DNA of 64,000 bases from an uncultured Verrucomicrobiota bacterium (lineage in GTDB: Bacteria; Verrucomicrobiota; Verrucomicrobiia; Limisphaerales; UBA9464): assembly GCA_903916195.1 (NCBI GenBank), contig CAIWVP010000034.1, positions 3,575-67,574 on the forward strand, given 5' to 3'. How positions within the stretch are numbered: position 1 is the stretch's first letter; each line of letters starts with the position of its first letter. A program made the position numbers and the translations under genes. The notes beneath the pieces were generated by a model. That model worked only from the letters and a program-made list of their open reading frames with translations. It did no database searches and was not told the origin of the DNA. Below are positions 1 to 56,496 of this stretch, one piece after another.

Positions 1-906
1 AAGGCTTCGGGGGAGGCCAGGGCCGCGGCGCTCCGCCCCTGGGTGGCTGCCGACCACTTCAAAGCGATGGCGTCCAGCGATTCCGGCGCCGAAGGCCGGT
101 TCCGCGAACGCGCTTCGCGGCTCCTCCGCTACGCCGCCGCACAAACCCACGAGAGCCTCCGCCTCGAGGCCTCGAAGCTCGACGCGGAGCTGGATCCCAA
201 CCATGCCACCGGCCCGCTCACCGAGAAGCTCAGGTCCGGTTCGCTCACCGAGCAGCAGTCCGCCTTCACCTCGCTCGGCGACCTCAAGTCCGACGCGGCG
301 GACGCCGTCCTCGCTGAATGGCTCGACAAGCTCATGAAGCGCGAGGTCGCCAACGAGGTGATGCTCGACCTCGTCGAGGCCGCCGCCAAACGCAGCGCCG
401 TCGCGGTGAAGTCGCGTCTCGAGGCCTACGCCAAGTGGAAGCTGCCGCAGGACCATCTCACGCCTTATCGTGAGACGTTGTCGGGTGGGGACGCGGCGCG
501 CGGCAAAAAGATCTTCTACGAGAACGTCGCCGCGGCCTGCACCCGCTGCCATCACCTCGGCACCGACGGCGGCGGCAACGCCGGGCCGGTGCTCGACGGC
601 ATCGCGTCGCGCCAGACCCGCGAGTATCTTCTGGAGAGCATCGTGTCCCCGAACCAGCAGATCGTGCAGGGCTTCGAGAGCGCGACGCTGACGCTGAAAA
701 ACGGCGCGAACCACGCCGGCGTCGTGAAATCCGAGACGGACTCCGAGGTCACCCTCCTCTCGCCCGAGGACGGCGACGTGAAGGTCAAGAAGTCGGACAT
801 CGCCACGCGCGAAAAGGGCCTGAGCGGGATGCCCGAGGGCCTCGTCCAACTGCTCACGCGCCAGGAGTTGCGCGATTTGGTCGAGTTCCTCGGGACGCTT
901 AAATGA
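1..906 (+). CDS. C-terminal part of a PVC-type heme c (CxxCH) protein, 5' end outside window
   Basis: Open frame from base 1; helical HEAT-like segment then GDAARGKKIF...CTRCH heme motif, GPVLDGI, LLESIVSPN and C-terminal SGMPEGL...DLVEFL. Confidence 0.8.
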   Translation, partial: KASGEARAAALRPWVAADHFKAMASSDSGAEGRFRERASRLLRYAAAQTHESLRLEASKLDAELDPNHATGPLTEKLRSGSLTEQQSAFTSLGDLKSDAADAVLAEWLDKLMKREVANEVMLDLVEAAAKRSAVAVKSRLEAYAKWKLPQDHLTPYRETLSGGDAARGKKIFYENVAAACTRCHHLGTDGGGNAGPVLDGIASRQTREYLLESIVSPNQQIVQGFESATLTLKNGANHAGVVKSETDSEVTLLSPEDGDVKVKKSDIATREKGLSGMPEGLVQLLTRQELRDLVEFLGTLK

Positions 907-10291: not shown

Positions 10292-10510
10292 GTCCGTGTC
10301 GGCCAGCTAGCGCCGCGCCAGATTTGACCAGAAGTTCACACCGGCAAGCAAATGTTGCGGCCGCGAACGGAAGCCCGCGGATGCCCGGACGGAGGATTGT
10401 CGGCAGGTCCCGCGGAGAATCCTGCCCCGGACAAGTTCGGTTTGGAAATAACTCCGGCGACCCCTATCGCGTTCTCCGATCCCACAGCGTCGAATGAACG
10501 TTGAGGTGTC

Positions 10511-10652
10511 GGGAGGGACGCGGTTCCACCCGCGCCCTCGATGTTTCACGCCGCACCCGTCATCGCTTTCCATCGCAGCCCGTCACGTCACGGGATATCC
10601 TGCACGGCTTCTTCGCGAATGGATCAGGGCGCGGATGGAACCGCGCCCTCCC
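10511..10652. repeat. REP-like inverted doublet A
   Basis: GGGAGGGACGCGGTTCCACCCGCGCCCT (10511-10538) is nearly the reverse complement of AGGGCGCGGATGGAACCGCGCCCTCCC (10626-10652). Confidence 0.7.
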
Positions 10653-10680
10653 GGGTTCCCGGCGCGCCGGTCCACTCGAA

Positions 10681-10814
10681 GCGTCTTGGACTGCGGTGGC
10701 GCAGCAGAGCGGAGCCACCGCTTTGGGCGGGATACCCGATCCGGCGAGGCGCAACCCCGTTCGTCGCCGCGTCCGGCAGGCGAAGGCGGTGGCAAGCCAC
10801 ACGCACTCCAAGAC
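10681..10814. repeat. REP-like inverted doublet B
   Basis: GTCTTGGACTGCGGTGGC near 10683 pairs imperfectly with GCCACACGCACTCCAAGAC ending 10814; internal GCGGTGGC/GCCACCGC palindromes. Confidence 0.65.
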
Positions 10815-10925
10815 CTCGCGGAATCCGCATGGGGCGGGAGAAGTCGCGTTGGCGTCGTGATGCTCCGCACCGACTTTTCTTTGCCTCCCGGGAGCGGGTT
10901 TCCGTAAGAATCGGACCGCACCGCT

Positions 10926-29300: not shown

Positions 29301-30052
29301 TGGCGGGGCGCGTGCCGGACCACCACTCCTACGGGCGCGCGAGCATCGCCACCGTGCTCGGCGACCACGCCGCCGCGGCCCGCGAGCTGGTCGCTTCGAC
29401 ATCCGACTCGATGGTCTTCCTGAACCGCGGCGACCGCTTCGAGGCGCGGGCGATGCCGTTGCAGGCGCAGTTCGCGCCGGCCTTCGGCGTGAGCGTCGCG
29501 GACTTCGACGGTGACGGGAACGAGGACGTGTTCCTGGCACAGAACTTCTCCGGCATGGATATCGAGACCGCGCGGCAAGACGCGGGAGCCGGCCTGGTGC
29601 TGCTCGGCGACGGTCGCGGCGGGTTCCGCGCGCTCGGGCCTCTGGCATCAGGCGTCTCCATCCACGGCGAGCAGCGCGGCAGCGCGGTGGGGGATCTCGA
29701 CGGCGACGGCCGTCCGGACCTGGCGGTGGGACAACAGAACGGTCCCGTGCGGCTCTTGCGGAACCAGACCGGACGCCCGGGCGTCCGCGTGGCCTTGCGC
29801 GGCCCGAAAGACAATCCCGACGCGGTCGGTGCGATCGTGCGGTTGCGGTCCGGCGACCGGCACGGTCCGGCCCGCGAGGTCCACGCGGGCCACGGATACT
29901 GGTCACAGGATTCGGCGACGGTGCTGCTGGCCGCGCCTTCGACCCCGACCGGGCTCCAGGTCCGCTGGCCGGGAGGCAAGTCGCAGGAGTTCGCCTGGCC
30001 GGCGGGCGCGCGATCCGTGGAGGTGTCGACCGAGGGCATCCGCGGACGTTGA
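26354..30052 (+). CDS. FG-GAP/VCBS-repeat, ASPIC/UnbV (CRTAC1-like) secreted protein, two tandem modules
   Basis: Many DxDGDGDxD Ca-binding repeats; N-x-x-G-I-G-A-K-I...W-R-S-G and DAVGAIV...VRWPGG ASPIC-like domains. Confidence 0.9.
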   Translation: MEAARYARDLAGGVALAFVVCTSVPVLAAPPLVWQTGEGFRSAKAEVPATGKPGFTLLPPAETGIRFTNRLTDAMVAANRLLENGSGVALGDVDGDGWVDIYFCRLDGGNVLYRNLGGWKFEEVTAASGVACPGQFSTGCALADIDGDGDLDLLVNSLGGGTRAFLNDGRGRFTEVADPKLAKKSGATSMALADVDGDGDLDLYVTHYRTDTVNDNPPGLRMTTGRAPDGSPVVEPRDRFLALPNPGGATEVLEKGEGDQFYVNKGGGNFIPAPWHVGVFLDEDGQALKEAPPDWGLAAMFRDLDGDGLPDLYVCNDFVYWPDRIWMNQGGKRFKAAPRTAFRHYSLSSMAVDAADIDRDGFDDLFVAEMLSPRRQTRAWQRPFTLDGILPWPVSDPDFRPEVPRNTLHLARGDGTYADIAPLAGVAATDWTWSAVFLDVDLDGWEDLLIANGSNHDVQDADVMAEVGRTGAWRTPEKRLQFLGRMPRREVPSMAFRNRRDLTFEDAGAAWGFDTTGVAQGMALADLDNDGDLDVVINCLNGPARVLRNDSSAPRVAVRLKGAGGNTRGIGAKIKVLGGPVTQTQQMMAGGRYCSSDDPMRVFAAGTAKRLSIEVVWRSGKRSVVDDVVPDRIYEIDEAAARPSPPAVAAPPALFRDVSASVRHVHIDEPYDDFARQPLLPRKLSTLGPGVAWADVDSDGADDLIVSGGKTGRTVVFRNDGQRGLIEWTNAPVPPSNPRDQTGIAVWQVADGTVRIVSGASNWEDSDADAAPFVIATLKGAAPPVAKLAVINHLNSTGPVAMADVDGDGDLDLFIGGRAVAGRYPEPATSLLLRNDGGVFVVAQTFADIGLVSGAVSTDFDGDGDADLALACDWGPVRLLRNDGGKFTDVTTSYGMNGITGCWNGITTADLDGDGRMDLVVSNWGRNWRVDPPSGSDLPARLFYGDLADNGGVQTLLASMDPQLSMVTPWRQWKTVAALLPAVAGRVPDHHSYGRASIATVLGDHAAAARELVASTSDSMVFLNRGDRFEARAMPLQAQFAPAFGVSVADFDGDGNEDVFLAQNFSGMDIETARQDAGAGLVLLGDGRGGFRALGPLASGVSIHGEQRGSAVGDLDGDGRPDLAVGQQNGPVRLLRNQTGRPGVRVALRGPKDNPDAVGAIVRLRSGDRHGPAREVHAGHGYWSQDSATVLLAAPSTPTGLQVRWPGGKSQEFAWPAGARSVEVSTEGIRGR

Positions 30053-30087
30053 CGTGCAACCGTCTTCGGCTAAGCCTCCGCGCTTCT

Positions 30088-30858
30088 ATGGGACTTCTCA
30101 CCGGAAAGCTCGGTATCGTCTTCGGCGTCGCCAACAAACGCTCCATCGCCTGGGCCATCGCGCAGGCGTGGGCCCGCGAAGGGGCAACCCTCGCGTTCAC
30201 CTACCAGGGCGAACGCCTGAAGGACAACGTCGAGGAACTCGCCGGGACGTTCGGCGCGGACACGATCATCCTTCCGTGCGACGTGACGCGCGACGAGGAC
30301 ATCGCGTCGGTGTTCGCGCAGGTCGGCGCCAAGTTCGGCCGGCTCGACCTGCTGTTGCACTCGGTGGCGTTCGCGCCGCGCGAGGCGTTGGAGGGCGATT
30401 TCTTGGACACGAGCCGCGACGCCTTCAAGGTCGCGCACGACGTCAGCGCCTATTCGCTGATCGCGCTGGCCCGCGGCGCCGCGCCGTTGATGACCGACGG
30501 CGGCAGCATCGTGGCGATGAGCTACTACGGCGCCGAGAAGGTGATCCCGCACTACAACGTCATGGGCGTGGCGAAGGCCGCGCTGGAGGCGAGCACGCGT
30601 TACCTGGCGTATTCGCTCGGGCCGAAGAAGGTCCGCGTGAACTGCATCAGCGCCGGCCCGATGAACACGCTCGCGGCGCGCGGCATCGCGGGTTTCGGCG
30701 ACATGCTCAAGCACTACGAGGCGCACTCGCCGCTCAAGCGCAACGTGCTGCCCGACGAGCTGGGCGCGACCGGCGTGTTCCTCGCCAGCAACGGCGCGGC
30801 GGCCATCACCGGCCAGGTGATCTACGTCGACGCCGGCTACCAGATCATGGGCATGTGA
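30088..30858 (+). CDS. fabI: Enoyl-ACP reductase
   Basis: GVANKRSIAWAIA, HSVAFAP, YNVMGVAKAALE, ISAGP, TLAARGI. Confidence 0.96.
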   Translation: MGLLTGKLGIVFGVANKRSIAWAIAQAWAREGATLAFTYQGERLKDNVEELAGTFGADTIILPCDVTRDEDIASVFAQVGAKFGRLDLLLHSVAFAPREALEGDFLDTSRDAFKVAHDVSAYSLIALARGAAPLMTDGGSIVAMSYYGAEKVIPHYNVMGVAKAALEASTRYLAYSLGPKKVRVNCISAGPMNTLAARGIAGFGDMLKHYEAHSPLKRNVLPDELGATGVFLASNGAAAITGQVIYVDAGYQIMGM

Positions 30859-34728: not shown

Positions 34729-34844
34729 AGGGCGGGGCGCCGGCGCGTCAGGGTGTTTTTTCTCGGCACGGCAACTTCCCCGGCCCTAAGATGCTTTATA
34801 GGACGATACAAGTTCCCTGGGCCACCACCAACGCGAGAACGGCT

Positions 34845-35681
34845 ATGAGGCTGAACCTGGCAGGGCGGAACGCAATCTTGACGGGCGCCAACGGCGGCCT
34901 CGGAGTCCATTTCACGGCGGCATTGTCAAAGGCGGGGATGAACCTGCTCCTCGTCGCCTATCCCGGCATCGGTCTCGAAGACGTGCAAGCGGCGGCGCGC
35001 AAGGATTCGGTCCAGGCCGAGATCCTGGTGGCGGACCTGAGGGTGCCCGAGGAGCGGACCCGCGTGGTCGAGACGGCGATGGCGCGATTCGGGTCGATCG
35101 ATCTGCTGGTGAACAACGCCGGGGTCGAGTTCTCGTCCACCTACCACGACCTCGATGTCGACCGGATCCGCGACGTCATCAACGTCAATCTGGAGGCGCC
35201 GATGATGCTCACCCGGTTGGCGTTGCCGCACATGCTCCGGCAAAGACGCGGCCACATCGTGAACATCTCGTCGCTCGCCGGGAAATCGGGGCCGGGTTAC
35301 CAGGAACCCTACGTCGCCACGAAAGCGGGCCTGAGCGCGTTCACGCTGTCCCTCCGCAACACATATCGCGGCACCGGTGTGAGCGCGTCGGTCATCACGC
35401 CGGGTTTCGTCGAGGCGGGGATCTATTCCCGGCTCAAGGTCCAGACCGGTCGGTCCGCGCCCATCTTCCTCGGGGCCTGTTCGCCCCAGAAGGTCTGCGC
35501 CGCCTTGTTGCGGGCCGTCCGCGACGACGTGCCGGAGGTCATCGTGAACCGGTATCCGATCCGTCCGGTGCTGGCGCTGACCACATTGTTCCCCGCGTTC
35601 GGTGAATGGATGACCGAATGGACCGGCACGAACGCGTTCTTCCGCCGTGCCCACGAGGCCTCCAAACACCCGGAAGCATGA
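34845..35681 (+). CDS. Short-chain dehydrogenase/reductase
   Basis: TGANGGLG, LVNNAG, NISSLAG, YVATK catalytic motif, PGFV; start at ATG 34845. Confidence 0.92.
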   Translation: MRLNLAGRNAILTGANGGLGVHFTAALSKAGMNLLLVAYPGIGLEDVQAAARKDSVQAEILVADLRVPEERTRVVETAMARFGSIDLLVNNAGVEFSSTYHDLDVDRIRDVINVNLEAPMMLTRLALPHMLRQRRGHIVNISSLAGKSGPGYQEPYVATKAGLSAFTLSLRNTYRGTGVSASVITPGFVEAGIYSRLKVQTGRSAPIFLGACSPQKVCAALLRAVRDDVPEVIVNRYPIRPVLALTTLFPAFGEWMTEWTGTNAFFRRAHEASKHPEA

Positions 35682-35772
35682 CGACCCACCCCGGATCCCG
35701 CCCACGGCTGCGGCCAAATGGGCCCCGAGCCTTCCCTGACGGACATCGCTTTACCATCCCTAGACTCAACGA

Positions 35773-35802
35773 TTGCCCAACATGATATCGAAGGGTTAAA
35801 AT
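35773..35802 (+). promoter_or_regulatory. Candidate sigma70 promoter giving a leaderless fadL transcript
   Basis: TTGCCC-18 bp-TAAAAT in an AT-rich patch; ATG lies 7 nt after the -10; no SD. Confidence 0.45.
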
Positions 35803-35809
35803 TATAGAC

Positions 35810-37033
35810 ATGTCCAAAACGCCCCATCCTCGCCGTCTTCTGTCCGCTGCCGTCTGCTTGGCGGCGACGTTCGTCCCGGCGCATGCCGGTGGTTTCCGAC
35901 TCCCGGACCAGGATGCCTTCGCCACGGCCCGAGGTGAAGCGTTCGCTGCGACCGCCGACAACCCGTCGGCGGTCTACTACAACCCGGCCGGCATCACACA
36001 ACTCGAAGGCCATCAGGCGCGATTCGGCGTCTATGGGATCGACCTCGGGGTGAGCTACACCTCACCTGCCGGGAAGAAGCACGACAACAGCAAGGACCTC
36101 CACGCCGTCCCGCAGATCTTCTACACCTTCACCCCCGAAAAATCGCCGGTCTCGTTCGGCTTCGGAGCGTATTCACCCTATGGCCTGAGCTCGGAGTGGC
36201 CGGAGGACACGGGATTCCGCAGCGTGGTGCTGGGCGGAAAGCTGACCTACCTGACACTCAACCCCGTGGTCGCGTGGCAGATCACGCCGACATTATCCAT
36301 CGGCGGCGGAGCGATGATCAACTACGCCGAAGCCGACCTGCGGAGCGGTCTGTCGCCGATCGCGGGTGTCGGCCAGTCGCGGCTGAACGGCTCCGGCTGG
36401 GCGCCGGGGTTCAACGCGGGGATCCTCTGGAAACTCTGCGAGAAGGTGCAGATCGGCCTGAATTACCGGAGTGAATCGCGGATCCCGCTGGACGGCTACC
36501 TCGATATCACATCGCCGGTCTTCAGCGCGCATCCGGATGCCAAGGCCGAGCTCCCGTTCCCGCAGACCTTCGTCGCCGGCATCTCATATCGGCCGACGCC
36601 GGATTGGAACCTGGAGTTCGACATCGAGTGGAACGACTGGAACCGGCTCAACTCGATGAGCGTCCACGCGCCGCAGGCGCCGTTCCTGGACTCGGCGATC
36701 GCGTTCAACTGGCAGTCGAGCTTCTACTACGAGTTCGGAGCCACCCGGCACCTCGGGGGCGGCTGGTCCGTCAGCGCCGGGTACATCTTCAACGAGAACT
36801 CGGTGCCCGACCACGACTTCACGCCGCTGGTCTCGGACTTGGACCGGCATTTCGTGAGCTTCGGCGGGGGCTACAAGCATGGCCGGCTGAGCGTGGACCT
36901 CGCCTACCAGCTCGGCTACGGGCCGACGAGGACCGTCACCGGCAACCCGGTGAACTCCTCCGGCCAATCAGCGAACGGCGAGTACGACTTCCTCAGCCAC
37001 GCGCTGCTCTTGAGCATGGGCTGGCATTTCTGA
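35810..37033 (+). CDS. fadL: FadL/OmpP1/TodX-family outer membrane long-chain fatty acid channel
   Basis: Signal peptide, GGF...ATARGEAF.ATADNPSAVYYNPAG plug motif, PYGLSSEW, LTLNPVVA, terminal Phe. Confidence 0.93.
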   Translation: MSKTPHPRRLLSAAVCLAATFVPAHAGGFRLPDQDAFATARGEAFAATADNPSAVYYNPAGITQLEGHQARFGVYGIDLGVSYTSPAGKKHDNSKDLHAVPQIFYTFTPEKSPVSFGFGAYSPYGLSSEWPEDTGFRSVVLGGKLTYLTLNPVVAWQITPTLSIGGGAMINYAEADLRSGLSPIAGVGQSRLNGSGWAPGFNAGILWKLCEKVQIGLNYRSESRIPLDGYLDITSPVFSAHPDAKAELPFPQTFVAGISYRPTPDWNLEFDIEWNDWNRLNSMSVHAPQAPFLDSAIAFNWQSSFYYEFGATRHLGGGWSVSAGYIFNENSVPDHDFTPLVSDLDRHFVSFGGGYKHGRLSVDLAYQLGYGPTRTVTGNPVNSSGQSANGEYDFLSHALLLSMGWHF

Positions 37034-37143
37034 CATGCTGTACGGACGGTACCGCCCGCTTCCGACGGGTGGCGCGGCGATCCGATGGGCCGTGGCCGGC
37101 GTGGACCACGCCCGACAGGACAACTTGCTTTAGACCGATCCGC

Positions 37144-38577
37144 ATGGCGACGAAACCGACAGGTACCTTATCGGGCGAGCGAGAGAGCTTCATCAGCTGC
37201 CGCAACAGCCAGGGCGCGGAGGTCCGGGCCACGCCGGTGCGCCTGACCCGCTTCACCGTGGTGCTCGAGGTCTACAACCCGTTCAGCATCGTCCAGATCT
37301 CCGAGGTGCTGAGCGAGTTCCGGATCACGATGAACGACCGGCTGGTCTATTCCGGCCGCGCCGTCGTGAGCAACATCGTCAACACCGGCATCATGGTGTT
37401 GTGCGAGGCCACGCTGGACGATTCATGGCTCGACGTGGACATGTTCTCGTCGTCCGCCCATCCGGGGCGGCTACGGGACGAGTTCGGCGAGTTCCTCCAA
37501 GAATGGCAGAAGATCCATAGCGTCACCCCCGGCTTCAAGGTCGTGGTGGCCGACATGCAGACGCTGCTCGCCGACCTGCGGCGGTGGATGGAGCAGGTGG
37601 AGCTGGGCATCCGTTCGTCACCCGGAGGGAACCGGGCCTTGCTTGAACGCGACGTGATCACCGACCTGAGCCAACCGGTGCTGACGGTGATCGACGAGTT
37701 GTTCGACCGGTTCGAATCGATCGCCGGCTCCTTGGATCCCGCGCTGCAGCCGATGCACCGGAACTATATCAAGCGACAACTGCATCCGCTGGTGCTCTGC
37801 GCGCCGTTCGCCTACCGCACGTTCCAGAAGCCGCTCGGGTACGCCGGCGACTACGAGATGGTGAACATGATCCTCCGCGACCCGTTCGAGGGCGGCTCTC
37901 TGTTCGCCAAGACCGTCAACCTCTACTTCCTCAACTCCGCCCCGGCCCTCGCCCACCGCAACCGCATCAAGTACCTGGTGCAGGTCCTCTCGGCCGAGGC
38001 CCGCCGCACCTCGGCCGAAGGACGACCTGTCCGCATCCTCAACCTGGGCTGCGGACCCGCCGGCGAGATCCAGCAGTTGCTGGCGACCGATCCAGTCGTG
38101 GACCAGATGGATTTCACGTTGATGGATTTCAACGACGAGACGCTCGATTTCACGCGGCACCGCTTGGATGCACTGAAGGTCCAGCACGGGCGCCGGACGC
38201 CGCTCCAGTTCGTCAAGAAATCCGTCCACCAGGTCCTCAAGGAAGGTTCGCGGCCCGAGCACGGCCAGCCGCGCTACGACCTCATCTACTGCGCCGGCCT
38301 GTTCGACTACCTCTCCGACCGGATCTGCCAGCGGTTGATGACCATCTTCTACGAGATGCTCGCCCCTGGAGGGCTGCTCGTCGCCACCAACGTCGATCCG
38401 AGCAACCCTTCTCGGAACGGCATGGAGTTCATCCTCGACTGGCATCTCGTCTACCGTGACCGCGAGCAGCTGAAGCTGCTCCATCCGTCAGGCGTGCCCG
38501 ACGAGAACATCGTCAGCCGCGCGGATGAGACGGGCGTCAACATCTACCTTGAAGTCCGCCGTCCCATCGATCGTTGA
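37144..38577 (+). CDS. phcB: PhcB-like class I SAM-dependent methyltransferase (putative hydroxy fatty acid methyl ester signal synthase)
   Basis: RTFQKPLGYAGDYEMVN, AHRNRI, RILNLGCGPA, YDLIYCAGLFDYLSD, DWHLVYR; about 477 aa; followed by sensor kinase and REC proteins. Confidence 0.78.
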   Translation: MATKPTGTLSGERESFISCRNSQGAEVRATPVRLTRFTVVLEVYNPFSIVQISEVLSEFRITMNDRLVYSGRAVVSNIVNTGIMVLCEATLDDSWLDVDMFSSSAHPGRLRDEFGEFLQEWQKIHSVTPGFKVVVADMQTLLADLRRWMEQVELGIRSSPGGNRALLERDVITDLSQPVLTVIDELFDRFESIAGSLDPALQPMHRNYIKRQLHPLVLCAPFAYRTFQKPLGYAGDYEMVNMILRDPFEGGSLFAKTVNLYFLNSAPALAHRNRIKYLVQVLSAEARRTSAEGRPVRILNLGCGPAGEIQQLLATDPVVDQMDFTLMDFNDETLDFTRHRLDALKVQHGRRTPLQFVKKSVHQVLKEGSRPEHGQPRYDLIYCAGLFDYLSDRICQRLMTIFYEMLAPGGLLVATNVDPSNPSRNGMEFILDWHLVYRDREQLKLLHPSGVPDENIVSRADETGVNIYLEVRRPIDR

Positions 38578-41236
38578 CGGCGGACCGGAGGCCGATGCGG
38601 CGTTCCAGGAGGCCTTCCACTCAGAGGACCTCCGGGAGCGCCTCCGCATCGGGAAGCTCGGCTGCGCGCTGGTCATCGTCCTGATGCCCCTCGGGGCCTC
38701 GCTGGACTACGTCGTCTACAAGGACGACGTCGCGGTGTTCCAGTTCTTCCTCGGGCTCCGGCTCCTGTGCTCGCTGGTCACGGGCGCGTTGCTGGCCGTC
38801 CACCACACCCGGTGGGGCGAGCGGAACGTGCGGATGCTCGGCCCGTTCATCGCGCTCCTGCCCGCCGTGTGCATCGCCGGCATGATCGGTCACAAGGATC
38901 AGTGGGGATCCCACTACTACGCCGGCCTGAACCTCGTCCTCATCGCCGTCAACGTCGTCGCCCGCTGGACCGTCCGCGAATCGCTCGCCATCGTCGGCAG
39001 CGTCGTCGCGTTCTACCTCTCGGCATGCCTCATCGGGACCGGCTGGCCAGAGGCCCCCGGGCAGCGGCAGGACCTCTTCAACAACCTGTACTTCCTCACG
39101 TTGACAGGTGTGATCGTGGTCGCCGGCAACTGGCTCTACAACCAGCTCCGGGAGCGCGAGTTCGCCCTCCGGTACGAGCTCGGCAAGAACCAGCGCCAGC
39201 TGCAGGAGGCCAACCAGAAGCTGCGCGACCTCGACGAGGTGAAGAGCCGTTTCTTCGCCAACATCAGCCACGAGCTCCGCACCCCGCTCACGCTGCTGCT
39301 CGGGCCGCTCGACGCGCTCATCCGGCAGCGGGGCCGCCTCGGCGAGCCGGAGATCGACGAGCACCTGGAGACGATGCACGGGAACGGTCTCCGCCTGCTC
39401 AAGCTCATCAACGACCTGCTCGACCTCGTCCGCCTCGACTCCGGGCATATCGCCCTACGACGCGAGGCCGTGCCGCTCTCCCAGTTCTTCGGCGGCGTGG
39501 TCAACTCGACCCGCAAGCTCGCCGAGGACCGCCGGATCCAGCTCCGCCTCGTCCTCGACGACCAGATGGGCCGCGCGATGCTCGACCCGGACAAGCTGGA
39601 GAAGGTCCTGTTCAACCTCATCATCAACGCGATCAAGTTCACCGCGAGCGGCGGCACGATCACCTGCCACCCCGAGCGCCACGGCGACGAGATGGTCATC
39701 GAGGTGAGCGACAGCGGCGTCGGCATCCGGTCGGACGACCTCCCGCACATCTTCGACCGGTTCTGGCAGGCCGACACCAGTTCCCAACGCAAGCACCAGG
39801 GCACCGGTATCGGCCTCGCGCTCGTGAAGGAACTGGTCGAGGCGCAGGGAGGTCATGTGACGGTCGCCAGCGAGGTCGACAAGGGCACGACCTTCACCAT
39901 CACCCTGCCATGGATCGATCCGCCCCGGACCGATCCACACGCCCAGCCGGTCACTGTGCTCCCGCCGGCCGGGCCGGCCGAACCGCAGGACGCTTGGCTG
40001 GTCAGTCTCTATCGCAGGGCGGAGCTCTTCCCGGGGATCGCCCCGCTCAAGGAGAGCCTGAGGCCCGACACCATGTCGTCCACCGACCACCGGCCACGGA
40101 TTCTCATCGCGGACGACGAGCCGGACATGTTGCGGTTCCTGCGGTCCCAACTTTCCGGGCAGTTCCAGGTGTTCGAAGCGGTGGACGGACAGCAGGCGAT
40201 CGAGAAGGCCGCCCAGTTCCTGCCGGACATCATCCTTTGCGACATGATGATGCCGGAGAAGGACGGCCTGGACGTCTGCCGCGAGGTCCGCGCGCGGTTC
40301 CCGACCCGCAACATCCCCATCGTGCTGCTCACCGCACGGGCCGACGACGAGACCAAGCTCGCAGCGCTGGCCGCCGGCGCGAATGACTTCCTGTCCAAGC
40401 CGTTCTCGACGACCGAGCTCCGGATCCGCCTCAAGAACCTGGTCGACGCCCAGAGGCTCCAGAAGGAGCTGGCCTGGCAGAACCAGAAGCTGCAATCGAC
40501 CCTCGAGCAGCTGAAGGAGACCGAATCGCAGCTCGTGCAATCCGAGAAGATGGCCTCGCTCGGCCGCATGAGCGCCGGGATAATACACGAGATCAACAAC
40601 CCGCTGAACTATGCCAAGACGGGCATCTTCACGCTCCAGAAGATGGGCCGCTCGATGCCGCCCGGCGAGATCGCCGATTTCGAGGAGATCCTCCATGACA
40701 TCGGCGACGGGCTCACCCGTGTGGCCGGGATCGTCGGCGACCTGAGGGCTTTCACCCATCCCCACGGCGGGGCGATGGAGGATGTGGATGTCCGCGCCGT
40801 CGCGGCCGGCGCGCTGCGGTTCCTCGCGGCCGAGACCAAGGATGTCGCGATCGACAACGCCATCCCGCCGGGTTTCCGGGTGAGGGCGAACCGCAACAAG
40901 CTCATCCAGGTCTTCGTCAACCTGCTCCAGAACGCCGTCGACGCGCTCGGCGAGAAGCGGTTCAGCGACGGCGAGACCGCCCGGATCGTGCTCGGGGCCG
41001 AGGCCACGGACACCGCCCGGACCGTCACGTTCCACGACAACGGCCCCGGGATGGATACCGATATTTTGGACAAGATTTTTGACCCGTTCTTCACCACCAA
41101 GGAGGTAGGCAAGGGCACCGGGCTCGGATTGAGCATCTGCTACCGCATCATCAACGAGGCCGGCGGGCGCATCACAGCCCAGAGCGAGCCAGGAAAGTGG
41201 ACCGAATTTGCATTGGAGTTCCCGACGACAGTGTGA
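38525..41236 (+). CDS. Membrane hybrid histidine kinase TM-HisKA-HATPase-REC-HisKA-HATPase (PhcS-like; start uncertain)
   Basis: About 6 hydrophobic segments; [25 protein letters not shown]; REC ADDE/CDMMMP/SKPF; [24 protein letters not shown]. Confidence 0.93.
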
Positions 41237-41268
41237 CATAAGAAAAACGCCTCAACGCACTGCCGGTC

Positions 41269-42534
41269 ATGGATCCCCACTACGATTACAAGCGATACGC
41301 CGTCCTTTATGTGGATGACGAGGAGAAGTCCCTGAAGGGCTTCGATCGCGGCTTCAAGGACACTTTCCGCATCCTCACGGCGACCAACGCCGACGATGCC
41401 CTGCGCTTGATCGAGACCCAAGGTGATGAGATCGGCGTCATCATGTCCGACCAGCGGATGCCCGGCATGAAGGGCGTGCAGTTCCTGGAGCGCTCGCGCC
41501 AGCTCCGGCCCAAGACCGTCCGCATCCTCGCGACCGCCTTCACCGACCTGGATGCCGCCATCAGCTCGGTCAACAACGGCGCCATCTACAAGTACGTCTC
41601 CAAGCCCTGGGAACCGTACGAGCTGGACCACGTGCTCAAACGTGCCCTCGAGTTCTACACGGTCCAGAACGAGCGAGACCAACTGCTGCGCGAGAAGATG
41701 TCGGTGCTGCACAAGATGGTGATCACCGACCGCGTGCTCAGCCTCGGGGTGCTCGCCGCCGGCCTCGGCCACCACGTGCGCAACGCGATGTCGGCCGTCC
41801 GCACCTTCCTCGACCTCGCGCCCGAGATGCTCCACCGCGAGAGCCTCGATCTCAACCAGCTCCACCACCCGGCTTTCTGGCAAGATTTCCACCACAAGGT
41901 GCAGGGTCGTGTGAAGCTGCTCGTCGACCTGCTCGACGACCTCTCCGACCACACGCAACCGGGACCGTTCCAGTTCGACAGCGAGATCGGTCTGCGCGAC
42001 GTGATCTCCGACGGGGTGACCGAGATCGGTCTCGAGCTGGCCGGCCGCCGCATCCAGGTCATCAACGATATCCCGTCGGATCTGCCGCGCCTGCTCGTCG
42101 ACCTTCCGAAGATCCGCAAACTCTTCCAGCTCCTCCTCCGCGACGAGCTGACCAACCTCCAGGACGGCGCAACCATCCGGTTCGAGGCCGCTGCCCGCGA
42201 GGCCACCGCTCTCCAGCCTGCCGGTGTCGAGCTCTTGATCCAGGACGACGGACCGGGCCTCCCCCAGGCCTCGATCATGGCGGTCTTCGACCCGTTCTTC
42301 GTCCGGAACGACAGCCCGGACGAGTTCGGGATCTACCTCATGGCGTGCTACTTCATCGTGTACCATCATGGCGGCACGATCCATGTGGGACCGGGCAAGG
42401 ACGGAGGCCTCGCGTTCCGCATCTGGCTCCCGTTGGCGCCCGGCATCGGGACGGCGAGCGAAGAGAACGCAGATTTCCTTGTCCGGGTGATGACCAACGA
42501 ACGGCTTTGGGAACGCCTGCTCGCGACCCCCTGA
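41269..42534 (+). CDS. REC + degenerate histidine-kinase-like protein (PhcR/PhcQ-like)
   Basis: YVDDE, SDQRMP, SKPW; H-box-like GHHVRNAM; DDGPG and FDPFF kept, N and G2 boxes degenerate. Confidence 0.85.
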   Translation: MDPHYDYKRYAVLYVDDEEKSLKGFDRGFKDTFRILTATNADDALRLIETQGDEIGVIMSDQRMPGMKGVQFLERSRQLRPKTVRILATAFTDLDAAISSVNNGAIYKYVSKPWEPYELDHVLKRALEFYTVQNERDQLLREKMSVLHKMVITDRVLSLGVLAAGLGHHVRNAMSAVRTFLDLAPEMLHRESLDLNQLHHPAFWQDFHHKVQGRVKLLVDLLDDLSDHTQPGPFQFDSEIGLRDVISDGVTEIGLELAGRRIQVINDIPSDLPRLLVDLPKIRKLFQLLLRDELTNLQDGATIRFEAAAREATALQPAGVELLIQDDGPGLPQASIMAVFDPFFVRNDSPDEFGIYLMACYFIVYHHGGTIHVGPGKDGGLAFRIWLPLAPGIGTASEENADFLVRVMTNERLWERLLATP

Positions 42535-42546
42535 GCCTCCGGATGT

Positions 42547-43827
42547 ATGTCGCCACCCCCCTCCATGCACCCGGTCCGCGCCGGCGGCGTCCTGACGGCG
42601 GACAGCCCGGCGTTGCCGCCGCTGCCCGTGCGCCGTCCCGTGCTGCTCGTGGTCGACGACGACGAGCCGCTGCGGCAGGCGTTGCGGCTCATCTTCGAGT
42701 ACCAATACGAGGTCGTGCTCGCCGCGTCCGGACCGCACGCGCTCTCGCTGATCCAGCGCGGGCTCTTCGATGTCGCGGTCGTGGACATCCGCATGCCCGG
42801 CATGTCGGGCTTCGAGTTCCTCGAGCGCTCGCGGACGGTGGACCCCGACATCCAGACGGTGATCCTCAGCGGGCAGAGCACCTTCGAGATGGCCCGCCAA
42901 GCGGTGCGGCTCGATGCGTTCGATTTCCTGCCGAAGCCGTTCGACTTGCAGGTGCTGCGGCAGACCATCCAACAGGCGGCCCGGCGACGCGCATGGCTGC
43001 GGTTCGAGAAGAAACGCGAGGCGGCGCTCCAGCGCGCGGTGACCGCCGCGGAGACGGCCGCGCAGGAACGTGACCTGCTGGTCAGCCTCTTGTCCGAATT
43101 CCGCGCCCCGCTCAACTCGATCTCCGCGGGGGCGGCAGCCCTGGACCAGGAGTTGACCCGGCAATCCACACCCTCCGAGCCGCAGGTCGCGGCGTGGCGC
43201 CACCAGCTCCAGGAGCTCGGCCGCCAAGCGACCCTCTGTGTCCAGTTGGCGGGCGGCCCCCGGCAGGACCTCTCGTCGCCCGGTCCGCCCGAAGGCGTGC
43301 CAGCCGTGCAGGTGATGGACGACCTGGGACGCTTGCTCCGCGTGCACCCGGCGTCCAAGGGCCACCAGCTCACGATCCGCCCGCCCGCGCTGCCCGCGGG
43401 CTTGAAGGCGCGGGAGGCGGACCTGCTCCGCATCCTGGTGAACCTCGGCCGCAACGCGCTCGAATCCTCCGAGGTGCCGCACCGCGTGGACTTCGAATCG
43501 TGGCTGGTCAACGAACCGGTCCTGCTCGACGGCCCTGAACGTTCCCAAGGCCGCTTCGTGCTGCGCGAGACGTTCGAGAACCGTCCGCCCCTGCTCGCGA
43601 TCGCGGTCAAGGACGACGGCCCGGGGATCTCGCCGGAAATTTGGCCGCACCTCTTCCAAACCGCTGTCACGACCAAGCCCGGCAGGGGCGATGTCGGCCT
43701 CGGACTCACCTCGGTGCGGGACCTCGTCGCCGCCACCGGATGCGCCCTGGAGATCCGCAGCGAGCCCGGATCCGGGACCACGGCCACGCTCTACGTGCCG
43801 GTCGTCCGCCCGGTGGACCCTTCGTAG
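42547..43827 (+). CDS. REC + histidine-kinase-like protein lacking the phospho-His
   Basis: VVDDD, VDIRMP, PKPF; H-box LSEFRAPL; NLGRNALES, DDGPGI, TTK, VGLGL. Confidence 0.85.
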   Translation: MSPPPSMHPVRAGGVLTADSPALPPLPVRRPVLLVVDDDEPLRQALRLIFEYQYEVVLAASGPHALSLIQRGLFDVAVVDIRMPGMSGFEFLERSRTVDPDIQTVILSGQSTFEMARQAVRLDAFDFLPKPFDLQVLRQTIQQAARRRAWLRFEKKREAALQRAVTAAETAAQERDLLVSLLSEFRAPLNSISAGAAALDQELTRQSTPSEPQVAAWRHQLQELGRQATLCVQLAGGPRQDLSSPGPPEGVPAVQVMDDLGRLLRVHPASKGHQLTIRPPALPAGLKAREADLLRILVNLGRNALESSEVPHRVDFESWLVNEPVLLDGPERSQGRFVLRETFENRPPLLAIAVKDDGPGISPEIWPHLFQTAVTTKPGRGDVGLGLTSVRDLVAATGCALEIRSEPGSGTTATLYVPVVRPVDPS

Positions 43828-43891
43828 ACGGCGAATAGGTTCGCCCGCCCGCGGCGTGTCCGGTATCGCTCGCCCGGCCTCGCGCCGACCC

Positions 43892-45303
43892 ATGCGCAGA
43901 ACCAAGATCATCGCCACGCTCGGGCCCGCCACCGACTCGTCCGAGATGCTCGGACGCCTCATCGACGCGGGCATGGACTCGCCCGGCTGAACATGTCCCA
44001 CGCCACGCCCGATTGGGTGCGCCGCGTCGTGAAGGACATCCGCGCCCACTCCAAGGCGCGCGGCGTCGCCATCGGGATCCTGCTCGACACCCAAGGCCCC
44101 GCGATCCGCACCGGCGATGTGCCGGCGAAGATCCCCCTCGCGGTCGGTGACCGCTTCGTCTTCACCGTCCAAGGCGACTCGCTCCGTCCCGACGAAGGTG
44201 TCAAGGGCACGTCCGTCGGCTACGACGGGTTCGCGGCGGACGTCGAGGTCGGCAAGACGCTGATCGTGGACAACGGCGAGCTGCGGATGCGCATCCTCTC
44301 CAAGACAGCCACACGGGTCGTGTGCGAAGTGCTCACCGAGGGGCAGATGGGCAGCCGACGCCACATCAACCTCCCCGGCGTCCGCGTCTCGCTCCCTGCG
44401 TTGACCGACAAGGACAAGGCCGACGTGGAGCTCGGGCTCGAGGTCGGGGTCGATTTCATCGCGCTCAGCTTCGTCCGCGATCCCGATGACATGGCGCAGC
44501 TGCGCGCGCTCGTGGCCGGTTCGCCGCACCAGCCCAAGCTCATCGCCAAGATCGAGCACCAGTTCGCGGTGGACCACTTCGAGGCCATCGCCCGGGCCTC
44601 CGACGGCGTGATGGTCGCGCGGGGCGACCTGGGCATCGAGTGCCCGTACGAGGAGCTGCCGATCATCCAGCGCCGCATCGTCAAGAAGTGCCAGGAGATC
44701 GGCCGCCCGGTGATCGTCGCAACGCATCTGCTCGAGAGCATGATCACGAACCCGATGCCCACGCGCGCGGAGATCACCGACGTGGCGAACGCCGTGTTCG
44801 AGCAGGCCGACGCCATCATGCTCAGCGGCGAGACGACCGTGGGGAAGTACCCGCTCCAGTGCATCGAGGTGTTCGACACCGTCACCCGCCGCATCGAGCG
44901 GAGCGGTGGAGCCGATTACCACCACGCCGCCGAGCTCACGTCGCCGCGGCAGAAGCTCGTGAAGAGCGCGGTGCTGCTCGCCGACGAACTGAAGGCCGCC
45001 GCCATCGTGGTCTTCACCCGGCGCGGCCACATGGCCCGCTACGTCTCGTGGCTCCGGCCGCGTTTTTCCCCCATCTACGCCTTCGCCGACCGCTGGACGA
45101 CCGCGGAATCCCTCGCGATCTGCCGCGGCGTCGTGCCTGGTGTCGTCCCGTTCACCCACGCGGAACCGGACAAGACCGTCGACGCCGCCCTCGCGTCGCT
45201 GATGGCGAAAGGCCGACTCAAGCGCGGCGATGCCGTCGTCGTGCTCAGCATCGTCACCGCCGGCGACCAGCTCGTGGACGCGGTGACGATGCGCGTGATC
45301 TGA
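43892..45303 (+). pseudogene. pyk: Pyruvate kinase, interrupted by a 1-base frameshift near 43979 (real or sequencing error)
   Basis: MRRTKIIATLGPA...AGMD in one frame, ARLNMSH...DTQGPAIRTG, AKIE, MVARGDLG, DAIMLSGET in the next. Confidence 0.9.
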
Positions 45304-53867: not shown

Positions 53868-55091
53868 ATGGCACGTCGTGCTGCACCAGGTCCGCGCGGT
53901 CCTCGTCCTCGCCGCAGCAAAACGCGCTGGCTCTGGATCGGCGCGGCGATCGGCGTGCTTGCCGGTGCGGGTTGGACCGCATGGCGACGCTCGGCCGGTT
54001 CCACTTCACAGAAGGTTCCGGTCTTTTCCACGCCCGGACCTCCTGCTGCGGCCGAGCCGTCCGGACCGTCCATTTCACCCACGCAGCCGACGACCAAGCC
54101 GGCACCGATCGTCGAAGCACCCAAGCAGGCCGCTCCACCACCGGTCGAGAAGGAGCCGGCACCGAAAGTCGCGACCGACACCGATCAGGTCCGCGCCGAG
54201 ATCCCGAAAGCCGGGACGCCAGCGGCCCGCACCCCTCCACCGCCGGAGCTGCTCCTCTCGCTACAACTCGCGCTCACCGGCCACGGCATCTCCGTGGGCC
54301 CGATCGACGGCGTCGGTGGCGCGCAGACCGCGTCCGCCCTGCGCGCGTTCCAGATGCAGCACGGCCTCGAGCAGACCGGCCGACCCGACCCCGACACGGT
54401 CCGCGAGCTGGAGACCGGACGGGGCGAACCCTTCACCCTCATCACCATCACCGCCGCCGACCTCGCCGGGCTCGCGCCGGTGCCAATCACCTGGCTCGGT
54501 CGATCCCGGGTGCGGACGCTTGGTTTCGAGACCTTGCTCGAGCTCGTCGCCGAGCGGCACCACGCGCAGCCGTCGCTCGTGCGTCGGCTGAACCCGGCGG
54601 TCGATTGGGACCATCCGGCCGCCGGCCTCGAACTGTTCGTCCCACGTGCCGCCTATCCGCCGGCCCGGCACGCGGCCCTGGTCCGCGTGAGCCTCGGGCA
54701 ACGCTGGATCCGGGCCTTCGACGCGCAAGGAAACCTGCTCGCGCACTTTCCGTGCAGCATCGGCCGGATCGCCGAGAAGCGCCCGGTGGGCGAGCTCCAC
54801 GTCGCCGTCGCCGTCAAGGATCCCGACTACACGTTCGATCCCGCGGTCTTCCCAGAATCCGCCGAGGCCAAGGAGATCGGCCGCAAGCTCCGCATCCCGC
54901 CCGGCCCGAACAACCCGGTCGGAGTCGCCTGGATCGGTCTGGACAAGCCAGGTTTCGGTATCCACGGCACACCGGCCCCGGAGCAGGTCGGCCGCACCGA
55001 GAGCCACGGATGCTTCCGCTTGGCGAACTGGAACGCGGCCTATCTCCGGCAGATGGTGACCGTGGGAACCCCGGTCTGGATCGAGCCCTGA
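53868..55091 (+). CDS. L,D-transpeptidase with Pro-rich stalk, PG-binding and LysM-like domains
   Basis: IDGVGG.QT..ALRAFQ..HGL..TG; PGPNNPVG; GIHGT...SHGCFRL. Confidence 0.92.
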   Translation: MARRAAPGPRGPRPRRSKTRWLWIGAAIGVLAGAGWTAWRRSAGSTSQKVPVFSTPGPPAAAEPSGPSISPTQPTTKPAPIVEAPKQAAPPPVEKEPAPKVATDTDQVRAEIPKAGTPAARTPPPPELLLSLQLALTGHGISVGPIDGVGGAQTASALRAFQMQHGLEQTGRPDPDTVRELETGRGEPFTLITITAADLAGLAPVPITWLGRSRVRTLGFETLLELVAERHHAQPSLVRRLNPAVDWDHPAAGLELFVPRAAYPPARHAALVRVSLGQRWIRAFDAQGNLLAHFPCSIGRIAEKRPVGELHVAVAVKDPDYTFDPAVFPESAEAKEIGRKLRIPPGPNNPVGVAWIGLDKPGFGIHGTPAPEQVGRTESHGCFRLANWNAAYLRQMVTVGTPVWIEP

Positions 55092-55176: not shown

Positions 55177-56496
55177 GTGCATCTTCCGAGACTGTTGTCG
55201 TCCGCCGCGGCGGCGTTGAGCATCCTGGCCCTGCGTCTCGTCGCCGGCCCGCTCGAGGACTACGTGGGCGCGCCGGACGCCTCCTTCAACTGGAAGCGCA
55301 ACGAGCAGAAGCCGCTGCCCGGCGCCACGCTCAGCCATCTCGAACTCGTCTCGCAGACGTGGCAGGGACAGTTCTGGAGCCACCACATCCTGGTCGTCCG
55401 ACCGGACAAGCTGACCCATCCAGACATCGCGCTGCTCTTCGTCACCGGCGGCGGCTACGGAGCGCCCGACGACAAGGACGCGGAGCGCTTCAACCTCATC
55501 GCCCAGCGCGCCGGCGCCGTCACCGCCATCATCACCAAGATCCCGAACCAGCCGCTCTACGACGGCCGCACCGAGGACGCGCTCATCGCGTACACCTTCG
55601 ACAAGTTCCTCAAGACCGGTGACAAGACGTGGCCGCTGCTCTTCCCGATGGTGAAGAGCGCCGTCCGCGGCATGGACACCGTCCAGCAGTTCGCCAAGAA
55701 GGAGTGGGGCCAGGACGTGAAGCAGTTCGTCATCTCCGGTGCGAGCAAGCGCGGCTGGACGACCTGGCTCACCGCCGCCGCGGATCCGCGCGTGAAGGCC
55801 ATCGCTCCGATGGTCATCGACATGCTGAACATGAAGAAGCAGCTCGAATGGACCGGCAAGATGTACGGCCGCCAGAGCGAGGAGATCAACGACTACACCG
55901 AGCTGCACCTCGACACGCGGGACGACGAACCGATGCGCCAGCTGCGTTCTTGGGTCGATCCGTACGCCTATCGCGCCCGCTACACGATGCCCAAGCTGCT
56001 CCTGCTCGGAAGCAACGATCCCTACTGGGTGGTCGATTCCCTCCGCAACTACTGGGACGATCTCCCGGCTAAAAAGGTGGTGTTCCAGACGCCGAACGCC
56101 GGCCACGATCTCGGCGGCGGCAAGGATGCCACCCTCACGCTCGCGAACTGGTTTGCCCAGGTCGCCGCGGACGAGGCGTTGCCCGAGGTGACCTGGAAGC
56201 TACGCGACGGCGCCAAGGGCGCGGCGGGGATCGACGTGGCGGTGGACCGTCCGGCGAAGAAGATCCGCTTGTGGAGCGCCCAGTCGAAGGACCGCGATTT
56301 CCGCGACGACACCTGGACCAGCCGCGAACTGGTCATCGAAGGCGACCACAAATCGGCCCACGCCGATGTGCCCAAGCCGGCTTCCGGCTTCACCGCCTTC
56401 TTCGCCGAGGTCGAGTTGCCGACTCCCCAAGGCGACACCTACAAGCTCTCGACCCAAGCACAGGTCGTTCCAGATCTTGTCAACAAGAACCCCTGA
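55177..56496 (+). CDS. PqaA-family (PhoPQ-activated pathogenicity-related) alpha/beta hydrolase
   Basis: IPNQPL, EDALIAYT, PMVKSAVRGMD, GASKRGWTTW, DPY.Y, PNAGH. Confidence 0.88.
   Translation: MHLPRLLSSAAAALSILALRLVAGPLEDYVGAPDASFNWKRNEQKPLPGATLSHLELVSQTWQGQFWSHHILVVRPDKLTHPDIALLFVTGGGYGAPDDKDAERFNLIAQRAGAVTAIITKIPNQPLYDGRTEDALIAYTFDKFLKTGDKTWPLLFPMVKSAVRGMDTVQQFAKKEWGQDVKQFVISGASKRGWTTWLTAAADPRVKAIAPMVIDMLNMKKQLEWTGKMYGRQSEEINDYTELHLDTRDDEPMRQLRSWVDPYAYRARYTMPKLLLLGSNDPYWVVDSLRNYWDDLPAKKVVFQTPNAGHDLGGGKDATLTLANWFAQVAADEALPEVTWKLRDGAKGAAGIDVAVDRPAKKIRLWSAQSKDRDFRDDTWTSRELVIEGDHKSAHADVPKPASGFTAFFAEVELPTPQGDTYKLSTQAQVVPDLVNKNP

Follow-up and report, generated by a model that had tools for sequence, protein, structure and literature searches.

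A candidate Phc-type signal-synthase/receptor cassette in a freshwater verrucomicrobium

The six-gene locus and its methyltransferase

In this study, we analyzed a 64,000-nt stretch of contig CAIWVP010000034.1 (assembly GCA_903916195.1; hereafter the window) from an uncultured freshwater verrucomicrobium, and focused on a locus at positions 34845-43827. Based on the list of open reading frames (ORFs) and Pfam domains, six open frames lie there in a row, all on the + strand (Table 1). They encode a short-chain dehydrogenase/reductase (SDR), a FadL-family channel, an S-adenosylmethionine (SAM)-dependent methyltransferase (MT), a multi-pass hybrid sensor kinase (HK903) and two receiver-kinase-like proteins (RK421 and RK426), and the spacers between them are, in order, 128, 110, -53 (MT and HK903 overlap), 32 and 12 nt. 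A first-pass annotation, made from the sequence alone, had placed six co-directional and closely spaced genes here and compared them with the phcBSRQ quorum-sensing locus of Ralstonia and Cupriavidus. The layout was confirmed in full by both ORFs and Pfam, and we consider it reasonably likely that the locus as a whole is a Phc-type signal-synthase/receptor cassette.

Table 1. Genes, predicted domains and boundary feature of the locus (aa, residues of the protein; nt, positions in the window)
Feature	aa	nt	Strand	Remarks
SDR		34845-35681	+	278 aa; Pfam adh_short 7e-46
FadL		35810-37033	+	407 aa; Pfam Toluene_X/FadL 3.5e-56; signal-peptide-like N-terminus
MT, PhcB-family SAM-dependent methyltransferase		37144-38577	+	477 aa; Pfam class I methyltransferase domains
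MT, PilZ-like beta-barrel	16-91	37189-37416	+	AlphaFold2 model
MT, helical domain	100-290		+	AlphaFold2 model
MT, Rossmann methyltransferase domain	296-472	38029-38559	+	AlphaFold2 model
HK903, hybrid sensor kinase, multi-pass		38525-41236	+	903 aa; Pfam HisKA, two HATPase_c stretches, Response_reg between them
HK903, PhcS-type multi-pass membrane sensor	22-221	38588-39187	+	predicted by hhalign
HK903, canonical kinase 1 (H249)	240-462	39242-39910	+	SHELRTP H-box
HK903, receiver (D573)	526-636	40100-40432	+	
HK903, PhcS-type kinase 2 (H688)	653-900	40481-41224	+	C-terminal; IHEINNP H-box
RK421		41269-42534	+	421 aa; Pfam Response_reg and HATPase_c
RK426		42547-43827	+	426 aa; Pfam Response_reg 8.6e-25, HATPase_c 1.5e-13
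Terminator-like hairpin and T-run		34736..34749	+	directly after the 1265-aa gene upstream, whose stop is at 34728

According to published work, PhcB makes methyl 3-hydroxymyristate or methyl 3-hydroxypalmitate, and PhcS senses the methyl ester and autophosphorylates at H230 (PMC11960443). PhcR and PhcQ are described as proteins without DNA-binding domains (PMC8578825), and PhcQ binds and stabilizes PhcA (PMC11960443, PMC13320629). A comparative analysis from 2023 assigned the phc cluster a restricted distribution in Betaproteobacteria (PMC10653808), and the genome paper of C. necator JMP134 reported 56-75% identity between its Phc products and their Ralstonia counterparts and cited a functional Cupriavidus system (PMC2842291).

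First, we examined whether MT is a member of the PhcB family. NCBIfam contains no PhcB model, and MT matched other models only far below threshold (BioC, 24.8 bits where 184.95 is required, and CpaM); among solved structures compared by sequence, nothing was better than E 0.056. Because neither source offered a reference, real phc loci were fetched instead. A tblastn search of MT against plasmids identified a Paraburkholderia graminis plasmid with a methyltransferase-kinase-regulator-regulator array, and the P. graminis methyltransferase, used as a query, retrieved 80 Burkholderiales loci, including those of Ralstonia pickettii chromosome 1 (L073) and Cupriavidus necator (L059). Each of these two consists of four consecutive frames of 463, ~453, ~377 and ~333 aa, which is the published phcBSRQ architecture (PMC8578825), and the gene order in the window matches both.

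MT was 42% identical over 455 aa to PhcB of R. pickettii and C. necator (E ~1e-132; 3e-132). The alignment was full length, joining aa 17-470 of the 477 residues of MT with aa 11-459 of the 463 of R. pickettii PhcB, so that homology spans the N-terminal, helical and class I methyltransferase domains. In the genomes of R. pickettii and C. necator, MT found a single match, located at the place of phcB (E about 1e-120); in the opposite direction, the best match of R. pickettii PhcB in the window's genome was MT itself (1.4e-119), and the second match had 6.6e-4. We further aligned 88 family members, five of which were PhcB proteins from Burkholderiales, and found 15 invariant and 27 nearly invariant columns common to all. 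The three motifs pointed out in the first-pass annotation fall in such columns: K229, P230, G232, G235 and D236 of KPLGYAGDYEM; C303, G304, P305 and A306 of LGCGPA; and C383, A384, G385, L386, F387, D388 and Y389 of CAGLFDYL. Thus, sequence comparison established MT as a full-length PhcB homologue, reciprocally best in both genomes, and as a member of the PhcB family.

An AlphaFold2 model of MT built from the 88-member alignment (predicted local distance difference test, pLDDT, 92.6; predicted template modelling score, pTM, 0.90) contained three domains (Table 1). The best Foldseek matches of the whole model were small-molecule O- and C-methyltransferases (3ocj, SgvM, DnrK and others). The N-terminal barrel folded alone had a pLDDT of 83.7, and 7 of its top 9 rows in VIA were PilZ proteins (MrkH, PP4397, YcgR, VCA0042, MotI, BcsA and Alg44) with Z 8.3-9.2, a small margin over the background of 7-8 stated by the tool. 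Foldseek likewise placed MrkH, BcsA, PP4397 and YcgR in the top rows, at TM 0.5-0.6 and with weak E-values. PilZ proteins (YcgR, MrkH, PP4397, BcsA, Alg44) are therefore the closest structural likenesses of the barrel, but the family differs from them at the sequence level: the Pfam PilZ family (PF07238) was found in none of the 88 members at E<=0.01, and canonical cyclic di-GMP (c-di-GMP) binding motifs could not be recognized by eye in the consensus of the N-terminal domain. Judged from these models, the PhcB family has a PilZ-like N-terminal fold that is common to the whole family. We found no paper on a PilZ-type domain in PhcB, in a search that did not cover subscription journals and supplementary files.

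These structural data bear on the possibility that MT is a regulatory enzyme, which would methylate a protein in a CheR-like manner or have its activity gated by a nucleotide acting on the PilZ-like domain, and would thereby tune the phosphorelay. The PilZ-like fold would suit such a role, as would the weak Pfam CheR matches of 25 of the 88 members (best, 6.4e-06) and the related, more distant clusters of the Atlas, where 10-84% of members carry Pfam PilZ. However, the matches of the whole model to small-molecule enzymes, the lack of Pfam PilZ and of recognizable PilZ motifs in the family itself, and the report that PhcB is the synthase of a methyl ester signal (PMC11960443) make a regulatory methyltransferase quite improbable.

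The phylogeny of the family was approached by a quick maximum-likelihood tree of the 88 rows, which was rooted at the midpoint only and in which 70 rows had no taxon names. The window's MT grouped with those of two metagenome loci, L116 and L118 (support 100). MTs from its own phylum were observed on both sides of the deepest well-supported split (L108-L112 versus L101-L106), a placement that needs at least three label changes in the tree, and the long HK903-type kinase is kept on both sides. There may be either two old MT subfamilies or a cassette that was acquired more than once. As a separate observation, the MT homologue of one genome of the phylum (L097 / L111:6814-8196, G035) has one in-frame TGA; the gene may be a pseudogene or be recoded, or the TGA may be a sequencing error.

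The sensor kinase and the receiver proteins

For the kinases, we compared profiles by hhalign, built from 51 HK903-like, 35 RK421-like, 14 RK426-like, 78 PhcS, 41 PhcR and 76 PhcQ rows. The transmembrane (TM) region of HK903 matched that of PhcS over 194 columns with a probability of 100 and an E-value of 7e-40, and reversed profiles used as composition controls gave 0.036 and 0.081. This difference is the strongest evidence for a sensor of the PhcS kind, and by profile comparison the membrane domain of HK903 was shown to be homologous to the PhcS sensor domain.

The remainder of HK903 was more complex. In Pfam, it has two kinase cores and an internal receiver, whereas the PhcS architecture comprises a membrane domain and a single DHp-ATPase (dimerization and histidine phosphotransfer plus ATPase) core, with R. 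pickettii PhcS showing HisKA plus HATPase only. The C-terminal kinase 2 was strongly related to the PhcS core (3e-70) and less to the PhcR kinase domain (4e-29); for kinase 1, the values were 8e-29 and 4.5e-21, respectively. The internal receiver reached the PhcR receiver with 8e-17 only, a generic likeness. Every catalytic motif, whether in the two cores or in the receiver, is invariant across the 51 members of the HK903 family. The first-pass view of a PhcS-like kinase thus held for the membrane sensor and the C-terminal core, but not for the additional HisKA-HATPase-REC (receiver) module, and judged from profiles the most fitting description of HK903 is a canonical kinase-receiver module flanked by a PhcS-type sensor on one side and a PhcS-type core on the other.

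A fusion of PhcS and PhcR, suggested by a colinear tblastn piece over phcS and phcR of the R. pickettii locus, was also considered. The domain comparison disagreed with it: kinase 2 is far nearer to the PhcS core than kinase 1 is, the PhcR kinase domain is about as close to kinase 2 as to RK426 (~1e-29), and the internal receiver is similar only in a generic way. The fusion was therefore rejected.

By the phcBSRQ gene order to which the first-pass annotation pointed, RK421 and RK426 would correspond to PhcR and PhcQ. The receiver of RK421, with D61 and K112, is 39% identical to the PhcQ receiver, and its profile matched PhcQ (1e-44) and PhcR (3e-40). RK421 also aligned with PhcR over the full length (25% identity, E 3e-29; 4e-13 by hhalign for the C-terminal part), and, as in PhcR-type proteins, a receiver is followed by a histidine-kinase domain with no DNA-binding domain. 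In this case, H168 lies on a DHp-like helix of the domain, and the ATPase is degenerate, with Asp instead of Asn in the N-box. Across the family, D61 is conserved in 35/35 members and H168 in 28/35, and the N-box position is D or E in 34/35; since the substitution is common to nearly the whole family, it appears to be an old and maintained state.

In RK426, the receiver (D80, K130) and the ATP-binding boxes are intact, and Ser183 occupies the site of the phospho-acceptor His, with SEFRAPL replacing the H-box. Of the 14 RK426-like rows in the alignment, 13 show His here, and Ser occurs only in the protein of the window. No aligned receiver has lost its Asp or Lys. Neither protein is of the PhcQ type, that is, a receiver followed by the PhcQ C-terminal domain, and RK426 matched that C-terminal part only with an hhalign E of 0.28. 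RK421 thus has a receiver of PhcQ/PhcR type, but the PhcQ C-terminal domain is not shared.

In Burkholderiales themselves, a PhcR match with at least 90% coverage was present in only 41 of the 80 loci, so that shortened PhcR is seemingly common there. The phcBSRQ-like locus of P. graminis (L002, locus 8971-13346) is carried by pPHS1_P, a 494-kb plasmid of conjugative type (MOBP, MPF_F), and the second regulator of this locus is annotated at 134 aa as a receiver alone.

Regarding the output, Pfam detected no DNA-binding domain in RK421 or RK426, and no DNA-binding regulator was found by Pfam among 10 further neighboring ORFs. Four LysR_substrate matches are present in the window's genome, none of them on the contig of the locus. 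The absence of a DNA-binding output nearby, which the first-pass annotation noted, was thus observed, but it makes no difference from Ralstonia, whose PhcR and PhcQ are likewise described without such a domain (PMC8578825).

Conservation of linkage and occurrence

To analyze how strictly these genes are linked, we surveyed 400 other genomes of the phylum (MT threshold E<=1e-30) and 80 metagenome loci related to MT. An HK903-like gene (36-53% identity, nearly full coverage) lies directly downstream of MT in 14/14 phylum loci, and an RK421-like gene comes next in 12 of them. The metagenome loci showed the same trend: the HK903-like gene follows MT in 76/76 loci with at least 300 nt downstream, and the RK421-like gene is next in 34/34 loci with at least 4300 nt downstream. 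An RK426-like gene was found in 7/80. The gene arrangement is not due to chance, and the linkage between MT and the kinase, for which a survey in Verrucomicrobiota had been suggested, is conserved in the phylum and metagenome loci examined.

On the other hand, FadL and SDR were less frequent. In the phylum, 5 of the 14 loci had a FadL match in the fetched stretch, 2 of them weak (22-24% identity), and 1 had SDR matches. Where at least 1600 nt were available upstream of MT, FadL was directly upstream in 8/48 metagenome loci, and it directly followed the RK421-like gene in 2/26; in the Burkholderiales loci, 1 of 80 had a FadL match, a weak one. Based on these counts, the conserved core consists of MT, the sensor kinase and the RK421-type protein, and FadL and SDR are recurrent accessories of the lineage. 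Their status as cassette parts, as first proposed, did not hold across the family.

A third cassette layout was observed in 13 of the 80 metagenome loci (L170, L173, L175-L177, L179-L181, L184-L186, L189 and L191), in which a different receiver-kinase-like gene lies directly upstream of MT; its product of ~365 aa shares 25-36% identity with HK903, in the C-terminal part of the latter.

The nearest solved relatives of SDR by sequence are the (3R)-hydroxyacyl-CoA dehydrogenase 2et6 (5e-31) and FabG 3-oxoacyl-ACP reductases, which suggests that SDR acts at C3 of acyl chains, either tailoring or inactivating them. FadL is closest to E. coli FadL (6.5e-15) and is the only FadL-family match in the genome, which is 96% complete. 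The SDR-then-FadL pair recurs beside the cassette in L116, L118 and L153 with its internal order kept, and its placement varies: upstream and co-directional in the window, downstream and convergent in L116 and L118, and upstream and divergent in L153. FadL genes beside MT fall into two similarity classes, with 45-61% and 25-29% identity. In L115, a 2.4-kb metagenome contig (1-339, 453-1871), FadL matches that of the window at 100% identity over its C-terminal 113 aa and the adjacent MT is only 79% identical, a mismatch that could result from recombination between strains or from chimeric assembly. A FadL-family channel has also been reported to take up long-chain acyl-homoserine lactone (AHL) signals in Sinorhizobium (PMC9938287). 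The likeness is a channel of this family tied to a hydrophobic signal that crosses the outer membrane poorly; the difference is that fadL in that organism lies outside the signal locus and the signal is an AHL, whereas here the tie consists of gene adjacency alone.

These two accessory genes are central to another explanation, in which the module senses and handles exogenous lipids, such as algal or bacterial fatty acids or esters, and makes no signal of its own. FadL would import the lipids, SDR and MT would modify or detoxify them, and the kinases would report them, with MT acting as a metabolic enzyme and not as an autoinducer synthase. A lake-water organism with its only FadL in the locus, an SDR resembling beta-oxidation and FabG-type enzymes, and an MT from a clade other than that of the characterized PhcB would all fit, and any density dependence is putative here. 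However, the universal unit is MT plus sensor kinase (76/76), with FadL and SDR present in only a minority of loci; no catabolic genes (fadD, fadE, thiolase) were among the neighbors scanned; and in the studied system the homologous methyltransferase makes the ligand of the homologous sensor (PMC11960443). It is therefore unlikely that the module serves exogenous lipids, and a self-made signal remains the preferred reading.

The family of MT is large. In HMMER searches against 1.84 billion cluster representatives, 4981 proteins passed E<=1e-3, and 759 clusters passed the stricter E<=1e-30, so that the locus is no rarity; in the Atlas, related clusters were commonest in Pseudomonadota, Myxococcota, Bdellovibrionota and Nitrospirota. 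The expectation in the first-pass annotation that automatic labels may exist proved right, as 37 of the 120 best listed homologues carry the JGI label '3-hydroxypalmitic acid methyl ester biosynthesis protein'. We found no paper on the system in Verrucomicrobiota, in agreement with the first-pass annotation, or anywhere outside Burkholderiales, in a search that did not extend to subscription journals and supplementary files. Hence, this type of cassette is common in environmental genomes and already labeled automatically, and is unstudied outside Burkholderiales as far as the searchable literature shows.

Across 5 studies, 14 lake or freshwater runs contained near-identical DNA (at least 0.73 of the sampled words), and one of these runs may be the source of the window. 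Contigs from 4 metatranscriptome libraries (4 studies), 95-100% alike, touch all six genes; in these four runs no contig covers 39715-40476, which says nothing on transcription. With regard to base composition, the GC content at third codon positions (GC3) is similar in the six genes (0.86-0.91) and in their neighbors (0.88-0.92), and there is thus no sign of recent transfer by this measure.

These observations also concern the possibility that the cassette is a decaying or silent relic that no longer signals. The Ser that replaces the acceptor His in RK426 and the lost N-box Asn of RK421 could be taken as decay. However, the RK421 substitution is family-wide, all six frames are open, the catalytic motifs of HK903 and MT are intact, GC3 does not set the genes apart, near-identical DNA persists across the 5 studies, and contigs of RNA libraries cover the genes. 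We therefore regard a relic as hardly credible.

With respect to the surroundings, the upstream neighbor is a 1265-aa AP_endonuc_2/LamG/DUF6797 protein and the downstream neighbor is pyruvate kinase (Pfam). The hairpin listed in Table 1 is a probable, though weak, candidate for the upstream boundary of the unit; the terminator scan was not above shuffled sequences (4 found versus 4.5 expected), nor was the promoter scan (2 versus 0.8). The host was previously named a probable verrucomicrobium, and this stands because organism-named relatives are mostly Verrucomicrobiota metagenome-assembled genomes (MAGs), namely 5/8 for MT and 4/5 for pyruvate kinase, the remaining ones being Limnocylindria, Chloroflexi and Omnitrophica.

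Other features were observed in the window. A FabI-type enoyl-ACP reductase gene (adh_short_C2, 7e-93; 30049-30858, +), 4 kb upstream of the locus and flanked by a 1232-aa FG-GAP/ASPIC protein and the 1265-aa protein mentioned above, probably serves housekeeping fatty-acid synthesis. Three very long antisense frames on the minus strand (41140-45159, 42366-43787 and 41655-42278), the longest of 1339 aa, lie opposite RK421, RK426 and pyruvate kinase and could mislead a naive gene caller. The frame at 42366-43787, the only one scanned against Pfam, had no Pfam family and an atypical codon-position GC, and we read all three as putative high-GC artefacts. Finally, a gene at 55177-56496 (+) with a strong Pfam PhoPQ_related match (PF10142, 3e-114) adjoins an L,D-transpeptidase gene with a peptidoglycan-binding domain (53868-55091).

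Proposed circuit, its weak points and its meaning

Comparison with phcBSRQ of Ralstonia and Cupriavidus revealed both likenesses and differences. Shared are the order of methyltransferase, membrane sensor kinase and receiver proteins without a DNA-binding domain (PMC8578825), the full-length homology of MT to PhcB, the homologous membrane sensors of HK903 and PhcS, a PhcS-like C-terminal core (HEINNP versus HEVNNP at the H-box), and a PhcQ-like receiver and following linker in RK421. In contrast, a complete HisKA-HATPase-REC module separates the sensor of HK903 from its PhcS-type core; RK421 alone, with a PhcQ-like receiver and a PhcR-like degenerate kinase domain, stands for PhcR and PhcQ; a His-less receiver-kinase, RK426, is extra; and SDR and FadL are added upstream. 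Moreover, no PhcA was identified in the window's genome, MT belongs to the other half of the family tree, and the host is a freshwater verrucomicrobium and not a plant-associated betaproteobacterium.

If the locus is a Phc-type cassette, it might work as follows. With SAM as the methyl donor, MT would turn a hydrophobic carboxylic acid, most likely a fatty-acid derivative and possibly one with a C3 hydroxyl, into a membrane-permeant methyl ester. SDR may install or take away the hydroxyl or keto group at C3, either on the signal or on its precursor. The ester would accumulate outside the cells, re-enter or cross the outer membrane with the help of the adjacent FadL, and bind the six-helix membrane domain of HK903. 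Ligand binding would control kinase 1 (H249), which would pass phosphate to the internal receiver (D573), and the state of this receiver would gate kinase 2 (H688). Kinase 2 could then phosphorylate D61 of RK421 and perhaps D80 of RK426. Because neither of these proteins has a DNA-binding domain, their output would probably run through direct contacts with another protein, an unlinked regulator, in the way put forward for Ralstonia PhcR and PhcQ. A fatty-acid methyl ester as the product, uptake through FadL and quorum sensing are what we infer from these comparisons, and the more specific assignment of a 3-hydroxy fatty-acid methyl ester is tentative and falls short of an even chance.

Several points weigh against a Phc-type cassette of this kind. 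In the tree, the Burkholderiales sequences formed one group (support 97) on the opposite side of a split (support 98) from the window's MT. Thus, of the comparison first suggested as a check, the reciprocal best hits in Ralstonia and Cupriavidus were favorable, but the phylogeny put MT in a different half from Burkholderiales PhcB. MT may or may not be a strict orthologue of PhcB, and because identity is only 42% and the two groups are separated by that split, its substrate may differ from that of PhcB. The extra kinase-receiver module of HK903 has no counterpart in PhcS. Only 51 columns of the C-terminal part of PhcQ align with RK421, although its post-receiver linker is PhcQ-like, and with the ATPase of RK421 degenerate and RK426 lacking the acceptor His, the relay drawn from HK903 to these two proteins is a guess. 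No PhcA orthologue was established by the count of LysR-type genes in the genome. FadL could simply be the general fatty-acid channel of the cell, and as parts of the locus both FadL (15/80 metagenome loci, counted anywhere) and SDR (3/80) are minority traits. MT is also sparsely carried in the phylum (14/400 sampled genomes; with the window's own genome, 9/185 genera). The metatranscriptome contigs give a weak hint of transcription, as they are assembled and DNA carry-over is possible. Finally, the product, the substrate and any density dependence are putative.

A broader reading is that freshwater Verrucomicrobiota and, through the wider family, many phyla communicate by self-made fatty-acid-derived methyl esters, using a self-contained unit of six genes. 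This unit would combine a tailoring SDR, a dedicated FadL gate for passage of the hydrophobic signal through the outer membrane, a PhcB-type synthase with a PilZ-like barrel that ties its output to an intracellular cue, and a two-stage kinase that gives a thresholded response, delivered by receiver proteins that do not bind DNA. We regard this broader reading as doubtful at present. If it is true, Phc-type signaling, studied so far only in Ralstonia and Cupriavidus, would be an ancient and widespread bacterial language and not a speciality of wilt pathogens.

Our results already go beyond the view of a restricted distribution (PMC10653808), as the synthase and the sensor travel together in every related locus examined and the family is very large in environmental data. 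The PilZ-like domain appears to be common to the PhcB family, and the idea of a domain of this kind applies to the Ralstonia enzyme itself. If the product of MT is a lipid methyl ester, the locus would provide a first handle on cell-to-cell signaling in Verrucomicrobiota, and its inserted kinase-receiver stage, pseudo-kinase partners and linked outer-membrane gate would represent natural experiments in circuit building.

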